7,004 nucleotides of DNA from a virus (Duplodnaviria; Heunggongvirae; Uroviricota; Caudoviricetes): the IMG/VR virus record IMGVR_UViG_2713896784_000026. One strand, 5' to 3'. Below, in pieces: positions 1,751 to 5,014 of this stretch. The first letter of the stretch is position 1, and each line of letters begins with the position of its first letter. The translations under genes and the position numbers were made by a program. Below the pieces are notes generated by a model. It saw only the letters and a list, made by a program, of their open reading frames with translations. It did not search any database and was not told the origin of the DNA.

Positions 1751-1935
1751 TGCTGCCCTCCGAAAATGCCAAGTTCAAGAAGGGCAATTCTGGAGAGTAT
1801 GGAATTATCATTGAGAAGATAAGGCTCATATTTTCTCATCCTGATGGCGTCTTCAGTAAACTCCCGGTTACTGAGCAGAATACCAATATTAAAACACCCT
1901 TCAGACGTATTAACGTTTGGTAGTGACGTTTCCAT
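1747..1935 (-). CDS. Hypothetical small protein (62 aa)
   Basis: ATG at 1935..1933 preceded by GAGGA with an 8-nt spacer (minus-strand reading TTGAGGACGCGATAATG). The competing plus-strand ORF 1732..1923 is the exact antisense codon register and has a GTG start with no SD. No recognisable motif. Confidence 0.45.
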   Translation of the reverse strand: METSLPNVNTSEGCFNIGILLSNREFTEDAIRMRKYEPYLLNDNSILSRIALLELGIFGGQQ

Positions 1936-1952
1936 TATCGCGTCCTCAACAA

Positions 1953-2098
1953 TGAATTTTGTGATGTGGTGCCTGGTGCCTCCAGGTGACGTTAACCAGT
2001 TAACAATTAACGCCGGAATACAGAATCACCCATAACGCTGTTTTTAGCTTTAACTGTTCCGCGTGCGCTCAGCCGCATTCACCACATCACAAAATTCA
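1953..2098. repeat. Perfect 19-bp inverted repeat (1953..1971 tgaattttgtgatgtggtg / 2080..2098 caccacatcacaaaattca) flanking a 108-bp spacer
   Basis: Read directly; the arms are exact reverse complements and do not extend by even one base on either side. The spacer contains a nested hairpin CCTGG-tgcct-CCAGG (1972..1986) and GTTAAC-ca-GTTAAC (1991..2004). The left arm ends 5 nt upstream of the SD of gene 1747..1935 on the minus-strand transcript. Confidence 0.9.
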
Positions 2099-2146
2099 CT
2101 TTAAAAAGGGCGGCAGAGCAGTCACGGAGTAAAACTGATACCGCCA

Positions 2147-2419: not shown

Positions 2420-2638
2420 TTAACGCGGGTATGTAATCATTCTGGCAATGCTTAATGCCGCTGCTTTTTCCAGATTGGTGATATCCTGCTCCAGAGCGGA
2501 CAGATTTTCAGCCTGCTTAGCCCTGGCTTCATTGGCCCATTTCAGATCCTGCGCTGCATTAATTTTCTGGTGCATCCACTCATAAAGTTCATCATCGGTA
2601 TAGTCTGGCGCGATGATGACGGGTTCTCGTTTCTGCAT
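2420..2638 (-). CDS. Hypothetical 72-aa protein; by position (last small gene of the leftward operon before the immunity genes) possibly a Kil/KilR-like host-interaction protein
   Basis: ATG at 2638..2636 preceded by a strong SD (minus-strand reading ACAAGGAGCCGACATG). Codon usage looks strongly coding (CTG, GAA, CAG, AAA, ACC). Predicted helical protein MQKREPVIIAPDYTDDELYEWMHQKINAAQ... The kil-like assignment is by synteny only. Confidence 0.7.
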   Translation of the reverse strand: MQKREPVIIAPDYTDDELYEWMHQKINAAQDLKWANEARAKQAENLSALEQDITNLEKAAALSIARMITYPR

Positions 2639-2730
2639 GTCGGCTCCTTGTGGTTAGCGTTGCCTGCTTTTAACCACGTCAGGCGAGGTGGTATCCTCTG
2701 AGGGGTCTGTTACTCGAGAGGAAATTGGTT

Positions 2731-2931
2731 ATGAATACAATCAAGTTTTCTTGCCCAGAATGTGGTGGCGAAGTCTTTGACACATCCTTTAAGCCGCAGG
2801 GCTCTGACAGTTTCGCGGGAGCCATCTGCAAAAATTGTGGTCACCTTGTAACTGAAGATGAGTCCTCGCAGTTCGATGACGAAATCGTTGACAATATCTT
2901 CGGTGCACTCACCAGAGACTTTCTGAAGTAA
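2731..2931 (+). CDS. Small zinc-ribbon protein (66 aa), C-P-x-C-G ... C-x-x-C-G with an acidic C-terminal tail
   Basis: ATG at 2731 with GAGG 9 nt upstream (2718..2721). Two canonical zinc knuckles, CPECGG at residues 8-13 and CKNCGH at 33-38, then the acidic tail TEDESSQFDDEIVDNIF. The track ORF starts 6 nt earlier at TTG. The minus-strand ORF 2710..3066 is the exact antisense register, which is why it also looks open. Confidence 0.6.
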   Translation: MNTIKFSCPECGGEVFDTSFKPQGSDSFAGAICKNCGHLVTEDESSQFDDEIVDNIFGALTRDFLK

Positions 2932-2977
2932 AGGCGCATACCGCTTAGTTACCGCTCTGATAACTCTTACCTGTCCT

Positions 2978-3024
2978 GCAATGGCGCTGATGTCAATATA
3001 AAGCGCCATTGCTGCTTCTTTGCC
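2978..3024 (+). terminator. Hairpin (11-bp perfect stem 2978..2988 / 3002..3012, 13-nt loop) followed by TGCTTCTTTGCC; candidate terminator for the zinc-ribbon gene
   Basis: gcaatggcgct ... agcgccattgc are exact reverse complements, 47 nt downstream of the zinc-ribbon stop. The T-tract is only moderate and the loop is large, so this is a weak intrinsic-terminator call. Confidence 0.35.
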
Positions 3025-3243
3025 GATCCCGGGATGCCTTCCATTCTGATGTTTGACTTCGCCCACTGAGAAACCCTCTGTTTCCCCTTAACGCCGGGGT
3101 AGCGGAACAAAAAACTGCTGCATAGTTATTAAAGTTGAACCCTGCCGTCATGTTCATACGCCTCGGGCTGGCTACTTAACCCCTGACCACTGCCGGGTAA
3201 CTCGAAGTATTTCCCTGCGTTCTGTGGGGCGGGGTGGGTTGGT

Positions 3244-3290
3244 ATTTTTAGTTTAATAAACATTAAACTTAAGTCAAGTAAAAACTAAAC
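3244..3290 (-). promoter_or_regulatory. pL/oL-like leftward promoter with operator-like sites: -35 TTGACT (3277..3272), 16-bp spacer, -10 TAAACT (3255..3250)
   Basis: The 18-bp site GTTTAATAAACATTAAAC (3251..3268) has GTTTA/TAAAC inverted arms and closely resembles the sites in the 4226..4322 region. A partial second site lies at 3273..3290. Hexamers were read by eye; no TSS data. Confidence 0.4.
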
Positions 3291-3361: not shown

Positions 3362-3640
3362 TTAGGGAAACTGGCGTCTTGCGTGGATCACGTTTACTAC
3401 TTCAACGCTTGATGTTGTTACGCGGTATAGAATTATATAGTTAGGGTGGGCTACAATCTCACGCAAGCCAGGTACTCTGTCGCTTGGTGGGTATAAATAC
3501 GGATGTTCGGATAACGGCAGCACACAACCCCTTAATCGCTGCCATAAGCGTTCAGCCGCATCTATGTCGAAACGAGCAATATAACTAGTTATATCATCTA
3601 GGTCGGTATCTGCGCTTTCAAGCCATAACACGGGTAACAT
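3362..3640 (-). CDS. parE2: ParE-family type II toxin (92 aa; ParE2-like)
   Basis: The translation from the internal ATG at 3640..3638 (MLPVLWLESADTDLDDITSYIARFDIDAAERLWQRL...YIILYRVTTSSVEVVNVIHARRQFP) has the RelE/ParE-fold pattern. That ATG lies 1 nt after the TAA of the upstream antitoxin gene, indicating coupling. The 124-aa track ORF from 3736 would overlap the antitoxin gene out of frame and is rejected. Confidence 0.85.
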   Translation of the reverse strand: MLPVLWLESADTDLDDITSYIARFDIDAAERLWQRLRGCVLPLSEHPYLYPPSDRVPGLREIVAHPNYIILYRVTTSSVEVVNVIHARRQFP

Positions 3641-3641
3641 T

Positions 3642-3833
3642 TTACTGCTTGCTCCGTTCCTTGCGCATCTTAGCAAAGCGTTCTGCCATTCTGCGCTCAA
3701 CTTCGTCATGGGGAATTGCTGGGCGCGGATCTGCAAGGCTCGTTGCTACTTTCGCACGCAGCCATTCGTTGTAACTGTTTTCTTGTTCAATGGTTTCAAA
3801 TTCAGAAACCATTGGTGAAAGGGCTCTATTCAT
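3642..3833 (-). CDS. paaA2: Small highly charged antitoxin (63 aa), PaaA2-like partner of ParE
   Basis: ATG at 3833..3831 preceded by a strong SD (minus-strand reading CCGGAGGAAACATG). The product MNRALSPMVSEFETIEQENSYNEWLRAKVATSLADPRPAIPHDEVERRMAERFAKMRKERSKQ is 63 aa, matching the length I recall for PaaA2. Sits immediately upstream of parE. The track's longer 81-aa form lacks an SD. Confidence 0.75.
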   Translation of the reverse strand: MNRALSPMVSEFETIEQENSYNEWLRAKVATSLADPRPAIPHDEVERRMAERFAKMRKERSKQ

Positions 3834-3853
3834 GTTTCCTCCGGTTTTATAAC

Positions 3854-4225
3854 TCAGGCGCGGCGGCATTTTTGCGCCGCAATCCATCTCGCTATGAGAT
3901 CTTCCATTGATTCTTTTTTCTGCTTTAACTCGCTGATTATCTGGCGTTGCTCATCCTCAGGGAAGGCTGAAAAAATCTGCAATAATTCCAGTTGATTAGA
4001 CGTTAACCCTGCATGTGGTGGAGAACCCCCCGGTTGTTCTGCGTATTCCGCATCCAGATACCCTTCCGGCATCCCGTATGTTTGCTCTATTCTTCTGGCA
4101 GCCTTTTCTCCAAACGAGGCTCTCCCACTCATTAGTTGAGATAGGTAGCTCTTCTCTTTGGGTGGCAGAGTTTTATCTTTAAACCACTCCTTGAGACGTA
4201 AACGGCGAATTTCTTTTTTTTGCAT
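3854..4225 (-). CDS. paaR2: HTH (Cro/CI-type) transcriptional regulator, PaaR2-like; occupies the prophage repressor (CI-equivalent) position and is first gene of the TA operon
   Basis: N-terminal HTH (KSYLSQLMSGRASFGEKAARRIEQTYGMPEGYLD). The C-terminal part resembles DicA-type repressors (SNQLELLQIFSAFPEDEQRQIISEL). Divergent from the Cro-like gene. Start placed at ATG 4225..4223 (123 aa): the GTG at 4288 used by the track would extend the protein across the operator region. There is no SD before 4225, consistent with a leaderless mRNA. Confidence 0.7.
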   Translation of the reverse strand: MQKKEIRRLRLKEWFKDKTLPPKEKSYLSQLMSGRASFGEKAARRIEQTYGMPEGYLDAEYAEQPGGSPPHAGLTSNQLELLQIFSAFPEDEQRQIISELKQKKESMEDLIARWIAAQKCRRA

Positions 4226-4322
4226 GTGGTAATTATCTTTAGTAATCACTAAACAAGCAAATACTTGACTTAATGGTTTATTAAACACTAAACTCGCAAA
4301 AAAACACTAAACCGAGGAAGGT
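4226..4322. promoter_or_regulatory. Divergent promoter/operator region between the repressor-like gene and the Cro-like gene
   Basis: Three 18-bp sites with conserved right half ...CACTAAAC: 4237..4254 CTTTAGTAATCACTAAAC, 4276..4293 GTTTATTAAACACTAAAC, 4295..4312 (right half only). Rightward promoter: -35 TTGACT 4265..4270, -10 TAAACT 4289..4294, then SD GAGGA 4314..4318 and ATG 4323. Leftward promoter: -35 TTGCTT (complement of 4255..4260), 17-bp spacer, -10 GATAAT (complement of 4232..4237), which puts the start about at the ATG at 4225. Confidence 0.55.
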
Positions 4323-4625
4323 ATGACATTAAAAGAGTTTATTAAATCATTAAGGGTTGGTGATGCTAAGAAATTCGCGGCCAGACTTGGTGTATCGCCA
4401 TCTTACTTATCGCAAATGGCGTCTGGACGAACAGCTATATCTCCAACCCGCGCCCTTATGATCGAATCTGCGACGGAAGGCCAAGTAAGTAGGGCGGAGC
4501 TACGACCCCATGATTGGGAGCTTATTTGGCCTGAGTATGCGAGCGGCATTCGTTTGGGGCAAACACATGTAGTTCATGCTGAAGGTGATTGTAGTGCATG
4601 CTTATCTGATGGAGTTGATTCATGA
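4323..4625 (+). CDS. ydaS: Cro-like HTH protein, YdaS family (100 aa)
   Basis: SD GAGGA 5 nt upstream of ATG 4323. HTH with recognition-helix motif SPSYLSQMASGR, close to that of the divergent regulator. Its TGA overlaps the next ATG (ATGA at 4622..4625). Confidence 0.8.
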   Translation: MTLKEFIKSLRVGDAKKFAARLGVSPSYLSQMASGRTAISPTRALMIESATEGQVSRAELRPHDWELIWPEYASGIRLGQTHVVHAEGDCSACLSDGVDS

Positions 4626-5014
4626 AAATCAAGCATGAACACATCCGCATGGCGATGAATGTCTGGGCGCATCCGGACGGCGAAAAAGTACCGGCTGCGA
4701 AAATTACCAAAGCGTATTTCGAGCNNNNNNNNNNNNNNNNNNNNNNNNNNNNNNNNNNNNNNNNNNNNNNNNNNGATAAAGACACCCCTGATGCTGTTGA
4801 AAAAATGCAGGCTCTGTTACCGGCGATCGAAAAGGCGATGCCGCCTTTGCTGGTGGCCCGTATGCGCAGCCACAGTTCTGAATATTACCGTGAGATCGTC
4901 GAACGGAGGGATCGGCTGGTGAAGGATGTCGATGATTTTGTTGCGTCAGCGGTTGTTTTGTATGACCAGATGAATCGCGGCGGCCCGGCAGGGAATGCTG
5001 TGGTGATGCACTAA
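4622..5014 (+). CDS. ydaT: YdaT-like protein (130 codons; proposed CII-like regulator / toxic when overexpressed); internal 50 bases are masked N
   Basis: MKIKHEHIRMAMNVWAHPDGEKVPAAKITKAYFE...; translationally coupled to the ydaS-like gene. The frame is continuous across the N run only if the masked length is true to the original. Confidence 0.65.
   Translation: MKIKHEHIRMAMNVWAHPDGEKVPAAKITKAYFEXXXXXXXXXXXXXXXXXDKDTPDAVEKMQALLPAIEKAMPPLLVARMRSHSSEYYREIVERRDRLVKDVDDFVASAVVLYDQMNRGGPAGNAVVMH
4725..4774. other. Run of 50 ambiguous bases (N) inside the ydaT-like gene
   Basis: Read directly. Confidence 1.

Follow-up and report, generated by a model that had tools for sequence, protein, structure and literature searches.

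Whether long protein-coding genes can lie on both strands of the same DNA in bacteria and phages is still disputed, and most of the antisense pairs that have been proposed come from ribosome profiling of open reading frames (ORFs) that lack deep conservation. The locus described here, at positions 2710-3066 of a 7,004-nucleotide stretch of DNA from the Caudoviricetes virus record IMGVR_UViG_2713896784_000026 (the whole stretch is referred to as the window), argues from the opposite side, that is, from deep conservation, a Shine-Dalgarno (SD) sequence for each frame and a confident predicted fold of the longer partner. On its plus strand, the locus carries a gene for a 66-residue zinc-ribbon protein, and on its minus strand a longer ORF within which the zinc-ribbon ORF is nested. 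We suggest that the locus is probably a dual-coding module, i.e. a nested antisense gene pair, with state-dependent expression of its two members. Taken separately, it is quite likely that both frames code for protein, and the reading as a state switch, which is drawn by analogy, is offered tentatively.

By name, the closest described entity is the NCBIfam family NF047912 (ECs_2282_CxxC), of which the window protein is a member; the family entry names a putative zinc-binding protein only, and its annotated records show no gene on the opposite strand, unlike the present reading. By position, it is sieB of Rac, lambda and P22 (PF14163), which occupies the same slot in the pL region and is likewise oriented against the early operon. 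This likeness extends to a leader with interleaved repeats, a hairpin and an SD sequence, as seen in Rac and in an Enterobacter prophage. SieB differs in that the two proteins have no sequence similarity, that SieB is a membrane protein whereas the window protein is predicted to be a soluble zinc ribbon, and that stops interrupt the frame antisense to sieB. In P22, the sieB/esc/sas locus gives rise to two products and an antisense RNA (Ranade & Poteete 1993, summarised in PMC12197685). To the extent covered by that summary, P22 resembles the present locus in having two proteins from an exclusion slot at which antisense transcription matters, with a logic of resident and escape factor, and differs in that Esc is an in-frame internal product of the same strand and sas is non-coding, whereas here the second product is predicted from the opposite strand. 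Antisense overlapping genes have also been described in Escherichia coli O157:H7, including ano, asa and pop (PMC5960689, PMC6294744, PMC7103648, PMC9927249), and in Pseudomonas as olg1 and olg2 (PMC8850804). In the excerpts of these accounts on which we draw, enterohaemorrhagic E. coli is the main model organism and the likeness lies in a coding ORF antisense within another gene; those cases are novel ORFs in established genes, supported mainly by RNA sequencing and ribosome profiling, whereas the support for the present pair is evolutionary and the pair is known from sequence alone.

If both frames code, they would be a rare case of deeply conserved genes that overlap on opposite strands, and both frames are kept across clades in which the zinc-ribbon proteins are only ~30% identical. 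The zinc-ribbon gene itself is ordinary, an already named small gene, and the antisense pair is the unusual part. Annotation of the locus is split: the Prokaryotic Genome Annotation Pipeline (PGAP) reports the zinc ribbon and phage pipelines the antisense ORF, so that a probable gene is overlooked by either. The 501 bases around the zinc-ribbon locus are 100% identical to E. coli O157:H7 chromosomes and are found, at a coverage of at least 80%, in 937 of 5,426 complete E. coli genomes and also in 14 phage records. Given this distribution and the presence of the locus in cultivable phages such as HK639, the reading is directly testable.

The zinc-ribbon gene

The zinc-ribbon gene (2731-2931, plus strand) starts with ATG at 2731, ends with TAA at 2929-2931 and encodes 66 amino acids, MNTIKFSCPECGGEVFDTSFKPQGSDSFAGAICKNCGHLVTEDESSQFDDEIVDNIFGALTRDFLK, with two zinc knuckles, CPECGG (residues 8-13) and CKNCGH (residues 33-38), and an acidic stretch at residues 42-55. 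Its SD sequence, GAGAGGAA at 2716-2723 on the plus strand, lies 7 nucleotides 5' of the ATG and inside the 3' arm of the proximal leader hairpin described below. For comparison, a regular-expression sweep of all fetched loci yielded 164 modules, in which 47 different zinc-ribbon proteins are encoded (159 modules with 103 unique DNA sequences in an earlier sweep with stricter criteria), and a deep set was defined as 12 representatives with less than 75% identity to each other. An SD sequence of the AAGGA type precedes the ATG by 6-9 nucleotides in all 12 deep representatives.

The protein matches NF047912 with 57.3 bits (cut-off 37, E 1e-15), residues 4-59 aligning to positions 1-56 of the 60-position profile. 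PGAP names the ORF "ECs_2282 family putative zinc-binding protein", and the product is identical to WP_001092153.1 of O157:H7 genomes. The cysteines C8, C11, C33 and C36 are invariant in the 47 distinct homologues, which share the zinc-ribbon pattern of two CxxC knuckles spaced by ~20 residues, and their codons are TGY in 12 of the 12 deep representatives. An exhaustive hidden Markov model search of 1.84 billion representatives recovered 66 clusters at 50% identity, mostly stand-alone proteins of 60-80 residues, with the common pattern FxCPxCG...GAxCxxCGHxxTEDDI followed by an amphipathic helix. Judged by these matches, the zinc-ribbon protein is a member of a broad family of proteins of ~65 residues.

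A preliminary description of the window had proposed a 66-residue plus-strand protein with these two knuckles, its own ribosome-binding site and an orientation against the surrounding leftward genes, all of which is borne out by the ORF, the family match, the SD sequence and the selection tests below. It had regarded the sequence as unrecognised, which no longer applies in view of the NCBI family, function-free as the name is. The acidic tail that it noted is present in the window protein and turns out to be a trait of the E. coli/Citrobacter clade only, the C-terminal helix of the wider family being amphipathic and often basic. Of the profile and structure searches that it proposed, the former placed the protein above the NF047912 cut-off, and the latter foundered on an AlphaFold2 model too poor for a structure search, with a mean predicted local distance difference test score (pLDDT) of 54.7 from a shallow alignment of 10 sequences.

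Within the overlap, nucleotide diversity at sense codon positions 1, 2 and 3 is 0.117, 0.056 and 0.167 in the clade of the window and 0.118, 0.076 and 0.241 in the clade of phage HK639, so that third positions vary most. Compared with substitutions that leave the sense residue unchanged, those that alter the residue in both frames are 4-6 times rarer, with dNN/dSN ratios of 0.23 (confidence interval (CI) 0.13-0.36) in the window clade and 0.17 (0.11-0.26) in the HK639 clade. When synonymous codons were redrawn under a null model in which the antisense frame alone is coding, the zinc-ribbon frame of the deep clades was 26 standard deviations more conserved than the null (z=26). By these measures, purifying selection on the zinc-ribbon frame is strong, and the plus-strand gene is real.

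These data bear directly on the idea that the antisense gene of the pL operon is the only real gene and the zinc ribbon a chance or shadow ORF. Many phage annotations do call only the minus strand (HK639_45, phrog_21318, phrog_29546), and of the two AlphaFold2 models that of the antisense protein is confident, that of the zinc ribbon being poor. Under this idea, however, the invariant TGY codons would require Ala and Thr codons to have stayed GCA and ACA by chance, the variability of sense third positions is the opposite of what it predicts, and the reverse resampling gives z=26. Moreover, the 66 clusters of homologues are mostly stand-alone, some of them co-directional in operons that lack an antisense gene, the AAGGA-type SD sequence is conserved and the leader is held in common with sieB. 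We therefore set this idea aside as scarcely credible, the selection and the homologues together establishing the plus-strand gene.

Function is less clearly indicated. Hits of the zinc-ribbon protein in Pfam are all sub-threshold and fall in several generic zinc-ribbon families, and the zinc-ribbon proteins match phrog_4852 in its N-terminal part. With the PADLOC candidate PDC-M14A, the alignment is limited to profile positions 21-90 of 152, at E values of 6e-6 (HK639 homologue) and 0.0019 (window protein); this weak, partial match is compatible with a putative role in exclusion or defence. The window protein has no match to the SieB family PF14163 at E values up to 1 and is thus not a SieB by profile. 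Restriction alleviation of the Lar type was considered and rejected: phrog_6422 matched with E 0.0098 and no stretch that passes alone, and PF14354 with E 0.03 in one homologue, well under the cut-off. On two metagenome contigs of 62% GC (L188 and L189), a distant homologue lies co-directionally within an operon; the ORF just downstream of it has an N-terminus that we take to resemble TrwC-type relaxases, and this context suggests that the family also occurs on conjugative or mobilisable elements.

The opposite frame and the overlap

The antisense gene is placed at 2710-3009 on the minus strand (99 amino acids and a stop codon, MALYIDISAIAGQ...) on the basis of its ORF, a match to phrog_21318, the ratio of non-synonymous to synonymous changes (dN/dS), an SD sequence and the AlphaFold2 model. 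An upstream extension is possible through 3010-3066, with GTG at 3066-3064 and an SD sequence AGAGGG (plus-strand positions 3074-3079) 7 nucleotides upstream, giving the 118-residue form that many gene callers report; translation may start at ATG 3009 or at this GTG. The register is exact, sense codon position 1 being antisense position 3, and the antisense ORF wholly contains the zinc-ribbon ORF. Residues 1-26 of the window protein lie outside the zinc-ribbon ORF, and across the family the antisense start is found 26-30 codons past the zinc-ribbon stop.

The window antisense protein matches phrog_21318 with E 4e-67, which explains why some phage annotations call the minus strand, and the homologues of HK639, KP12 and phage 2b match phrog_29546 with E values from 3e-4 to 9e-61. 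A minus-strand ORF of 93-174 residues spans the zinc-ribbon ORF at every locus recovered by tblastn or protein searches and is often the sole annotation, as in HK639_45. In 164 of 164 modules, no stop interrupts the antisense frame anywhere in the overlap, and both ORFs are intact in each of the 12 deep lineages. A purine-rich SD sequence stands 5-9 nucleotides before an ATG or GTG of the antisense ORF in 11 of the 12 deep representatives, the exception being Klebsiella phage 2b (L097), where there is no start near the conserved motif described below and the antisense frame forms the C-terminal part of a 155-residue ORF. Thus, across divergent relatives, both ORFs of the pair are intact and each has its own predicted initiation signal.

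The part of the antisense ORF outside the overlap can be judged free of the zinc-ribbon frame. Over the 20 codons round a motif h-x-h-x-[IV]-D-x-[ST]-x-h-x-x-Q, which is kept in all clades, dN/dS is 0.435 for the clade of the window (CI 0.21-0.92) and 0.351 for that of HK639 (0.18-0.58). The antisense frame is free of stop codons there, and the alternative frames of this segment have from one to dozens of stops each. The most conserved antisense residues, L3, D6 and S8 together with the invariant Q13, all lie in this non-overlapping part. The start is also tied to upstream genes at two loci: in L183 it lies 4 nucleotides after the stop of the N gene, and in L190 its GTG, which has GGAGG 7 nucleotides upstream, shares bases with the stop codon of an Xre-like gene (GTGA). 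In all four types of context seen, the antisense ORF points in the direction of the operon: (i) first after cI/pL, in the window, Citrobacter, Enterobacter, HK639 and L180-L185, (ii) after N (L183), (iii) after cro/pR (L088, L089) and (iv) after the tape-measure gene of Klebsiella phage 2b.

AlphaFold2, given an alignment of 31 sequences, predicts the antisense protein as a compact beta-alpha-alpha-beta-beta-alpha fold with a mean pLDDT of 90.6 and a predicted template modelling score of 0.75; strand 1 and helix 1 of this fold come from the N-terminal extension. Searches with the protein found no match in Pfam, NCBIfam or PADLOC, and a structure search found no structural relative. An antiterminator of the lambda N type was ruled out given that the protein matches no Pfam or N_peptide profile and that a separate N_peptide gene directly precedes it in L183. 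Taken together, the antisense frame is, from its pattern of substitution, selected at least in its non-overlapping N-terminus, and its product folds confidently in silico.

Translation of the antisense ORF could conceivably be needed merely as a spacer, with ribosomes preventing Rho-dependent polarity on ydfC-dicF-dicB and with a functionless product. The constant location of the ORF in an operon upstream of further genes would agree with this, as would a frame that stays open while the amino acid sequence in the overlap is just moderately conserved. We nevertheless hold this to be very unlikely because sieB, a 66-residue gene and a 147-residue gene follow the same leader with no covering ORF, because the N-terminal extension is conserved at the amino acid level and takes part in a compact predicted fold, and because the module is also present in a tail operon and after cro.

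Two departures from the usual arrangement of the antisense ORF are observed. In Klebsiella phage 2b LV-2017 (L097, 3483-3953), the module is in the tail cluster, the 155-residue ORF combines phrog_21096 with phrog_29546 and the sieB-type leader is absent. In Citrobacter freundii prophages (L084-L087), the antisense frame is a 174-residue in-frame run that combines phrog_23433 with phrog_21318 and may be two genes.

Inside the overlap, the 12 representatives use TTA or CTA for none of 40 Leu codons (7.3 expected) and TCA for none of 62 Ser codons (13.1 expected), an avoidance of antisense stops with P about 1e-10 over the 12 lineages. Among very deep clades, antisense similarity is 0.528, compared with 0.249 +/- 0.054 under a sense-only null (z=5.1), and there are 7 columns more conserved in antisense than in sense (null 2.1 +/- 1.3) and 3 fixed sense third positions (null 0.26). 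One example is a Gly that the antisense frame keeps in 11 of 12 representatives, the sense residue being variously Ser, Ala, Pro or Thr. Control genes of similar depth (cI, cro and YfdP) gave z between -1.5 and 1.2 in this resampling. As a negative control, the antisense frames of the 66-residue ORF, the 147-residue ORF and SieB, which all follow this type of leader in this position, are full of stops, from which it follows that an open covering frame is not general to the slot.

Several observations weigh against the coding of both frames, most of them in favour of an alternative in which the zinc-ribbon gene alone is real and the antisense frame is a shadow ORF, held open by codon composition and mis-called by gene finders as longer. 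An exactly aligned antisense frame is where long shadow ORFs arise most easily, this frame stays open merely by the avoidance of TTA, CTA and TCA, and PGAP annotates the zinc-ribbon gene alone. In the outgroup loci L188, L189 and L191, the antisense frame is open with neither a start codon nor the extension; since these frames are open with no antisense gene, stop avoidance on its own is weak evidence and was down-weighted. Less diverged control genes reach z=3-6 in the resampling test, and OLGenie-style dNN/dNS ratios of 0.39 and 0.585 for the antisense frame come from a confounded test, which sets second-position against first-position changes, and are for that reason kept as weak evidence. 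The antisense protein has neither profile matches nor structural relatives, and the 12 deep lineages are not strictly independent. On the side of expression, ATG 3009 has in the E. coli clade only a weak SD sequence (AAGAAG) and lies within a hairpin, and a possible extended -10 element, TGGTATCCT at 2689-2697 after the leader repeats, fits type I leaders only and is absent from the HK639/Rac leader type. The poor model of the zinc-ribbon protein belongs here as well.

On the other side, a shadow ORF would account neither for the extension of 26-30 codons with its conserved motif and low dN/dS, nor for a start with an SD sequence in all but one of the 12 deep lineages and its start/stop coupling to the upstream gene at two loci. 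Nor would it account for the operon-matching orientation in four context types, for a confident fold that includes the extension, for the stop-filled antisense frames of the other leader genes or for the columns that are conserved in antisense while the sense residue varies. With its controls imperfect, the overlap itself lends moderate support to selection on the antisense frame, and the zinc-ribbon frame, going by the substitution patterns, is the one that dominates selection there; purifying selection can be attributed to each frame separately. On this balance, we regard the shadow ORF as unlikely and favor the model in which both frames code. The preliminary description had treated the antisense ORF at 2710-3066 as an either/or alternative to the zinc ribbon, a choice that is superseded in that the evidence favors both frames as genes. 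Among the four outgroup loci examined (L188-L191), only L190 has the antisense gene, which leaves it as a suggestion, the outgroups being few, that an older zinc-ribbon gene was overprinted by a new antisense gene.

The leader cassette and a possible two-state model

Upstream of the zinc-ribbon gene lie conserved, interleaved inverted repeats: A (GCCTG, 2662-2666), B (ACCAC, 2673-2677), A' (CAGGC, 2680-2684) and B' (GTGGT, 2688-2692). Across phages, the pairs change on both sides, A/A' being GCCTG/CAGGC, GCCGGG/CCCGGC or GCCCGG/CCGGGC and B/B' being ACCAC/GTGGT, CCACG/CGTGG, ACCACC/GGTGGT or CCACT/AGTGG. They are followed by the proximal leader hairpin, CCUCUGAG...CUCGAGAGG (2695-2721, listed on the plus strand and predicted on both), the 3' arm of which overlaps the zinc-ribbon SD sequence and which, on the minus strand, encloses the antisense stop codon. 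An equivalent stem with a C/A-rich loop is found directly 5' of the SD sequence in other clades.

The same cassette precedes sieB of the K-12 Rac prophage (L187, ~3066-3172) and SieB of an Enterobacter prophage. It also stands before two unrelated Citrobacter prophage ORFs and, in phage HannyBb (L186, 2501-2575), before a membrane ORF that lacks annotation; in L084 and L091 it is located at 4005-4061 and ~4215-4322, respectively. From this comparison, the leader of ~70 nucleotides before the zinc-ribbon gene is homologous to the sieB leader of Rac, and since the cassette is common to both genes, the analogy with sieB is stronger than position alone would make it. That Rac carries sieB in the opposite orientation at this position had already been stated in the preliminary description, correctly, and the homology now includes the leader.

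Rfam has no family that matches the cassette, z-scores of its minimum free energy are weak and folding of single sequences is uninformative on the strand. Two kinds of structure are conceivable for the repeats. An H-type pseudoknot whose third loop is A-rich would agree with the loop lengths on the minus strand, and the plus strand could adopt alternative hairpins within a 5' untranslated region. The cassette could accordingly serve as a promoter, as a structure of the 5' untranslated region or as a pseudoknot on the leftward transcript, and the sas antisense RNA of P22 sieB (PMC12197685) may offer a lead to its role. Two other roles were rejected, that of an intrinsic terminator because neither strand has a U-run, and that of a frameshift or readthrough pseudoknot for the antisense ORF because its distance from the stop varies from 17 to ~85 nucleotides and because it precedes sieB with no such ORF. 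The sieB-type leader is an undescribed conserved element that may mark prophage-expressed genes of the pL region.

Two side observations concern this cassette. In HannyBb, the ORF behind the leader (~2575-2895, plus strand) is unannotated, encodes ~107 residues and has hydrophobic segments; the record annotates a 205-residue minus-strand coding sequence over it, which may be on the wrong strand. In the Citrobacter loci L084-L087 (4005-5201), two sieB-type leaders stand in tandem on one strand, the first with the 66-residue or 147-residue ORF and the second with the zinc-ribbon gene.

Combining this anatomy with what is established for sieB and pL, we suggest tentatively that the locus works as a state switch: (i) the plus strand would provide the 66-residue zinc ribbon from a separate rightward gene with its own SD sequence and a structured leader of the sieB type, (ii) the minus strand would provide an alpha/beta protein of 99 or 118 residues from a gene that opens the pL operon and precedes ydfC-dicF-dicB, (iii) in the lysogen, with pL repressed, zinc-ribbon mRNA would be made, as for sieB, (iv) upon induction or infection, transcription from pL through the locus would lead to the antisense protein and (v) this read-through, being convergent and allowing RNA duplexes to form, would silence the zinc-ribbon gene. 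In this scheme, the zinc-ribbon protein might be a small partner-binding factor of the prophage state, active in exclusion, defence or regulation, and the overlap might prevent the two genes from being separated in mosaic genomes.

An exclusion or counter-factor relationship between the two proteins is a more speculative step, which we put forward as doubtful. With the same reserve, the locus can be imagined as an ancient two-state unit, inseparable by recombination, in which the antisense protein, as the very first pL product, counteracts or replaces a zinc-ribbon exclusion or regulatory factor. If so, overprinting of an older zinc-ribbon gene would have given rise to a folded antisense product that has no detectable relatives. 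The preliminary description had seen a moron inserted in the early operon. What holds of this is a selected, counter-running gene in the sieB slot, with a sieB-type leader that fits a prophage-expressed moron; given that both strands are read here as genes, the locus is not simply a moron placed in a gap of the operon.

Downstream hairpin, neighbouring genes and sampling

A second hairpin, GCAAUGGCGCU / AGCGCCAUUGC, pairs 2978-2988 with 3002-3012 in an 11-bp stem with a 13-nucleotide loop, 47 nucleotides past the zinc-ribbon stop (z -2.3 on the plus and -2.75 on the minus strand). The hairpin that had been noted downstream of the gene is thus real; as a terminator it is unconvincing, having no proper U-run and being absent from the list of a terminator scan, and the AUG (3009-3007) of the 99-residue antisense ORF falls within it on the minus strand.

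The window represents the immunity region of a cryptic lambdoid prophage of the CP-933P type from E. coli O157:H7. This region has been studied by Jurenas et al. (PMC8630535), where paaR2-paaA2-parE2 form a cassette of three-component toxin-antitoxin and immunity function and ydaS/ydaT are Cro/CII-like; the zinc-ribbon locus is not discussed in that paper. From the annotated neighbourhood and profile searches, the leftward genes (minus strand) are ydfD (1562-1750), dicB (1747-1935), ydfC (2420-2638) and, beyond the locus, parE2/paaA2/paaR2 (3362-4288), and from the annotated neighbourhood ydaS and ydaT (4323-5014) lie on the plus strand with replication genes after them. A candidate leftward early promoter, TTGACT-16-TAAACT (3250-3277, minus strand), is placed by its consensus match between parE2 and the antisense gene.

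Protein searches recovered homologues of the zinc ribbon with identities as low as 60% in Citrobacter, Klebsiella and Enterobacter, and tblastn with the zinc-ribbon protein extended this to 29-36% identity in HK639, ENT1, KP12 and several Klebsiella phages. With the antisense protein, tblastn found close relatives only, the distant modules having been found via the zinc-ribbon protein. A scan of genome contigs with the zinc-ribbon alignment gave only two weak, irrelevant matches, and scans of viral contigs with single zinc-ribbon proteins gave none. A search with the antisense-protein alignment added 70 family members; six new loci were fetched for four of these, and in all six an intact zinc-ribbon ORF lies opposite. 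Full-text literature searches found no paper mentioning ECs_2282 or the zinc-ribbon/antisense locus, and searches on PDC-M14, HK639 gene 45 and CP-933P yielded no functional information on the locus.

Runs of N mask the window at 2147-2200 and at ~4724-4774, the second inside ydaT. The first adjoins the gene of the DicF small RNA (2108-2146, minus strand, assigned by Rfam) and hides its 5' part, so that the Rfam match is limited to model positions 14-52. Between dicB and DicF, and adjoining the DicF match, there is a sub-threshold Rfam match to STnc100 (1903-2110, minus strand) with 39.8 bits compared with a gathering score of 47.

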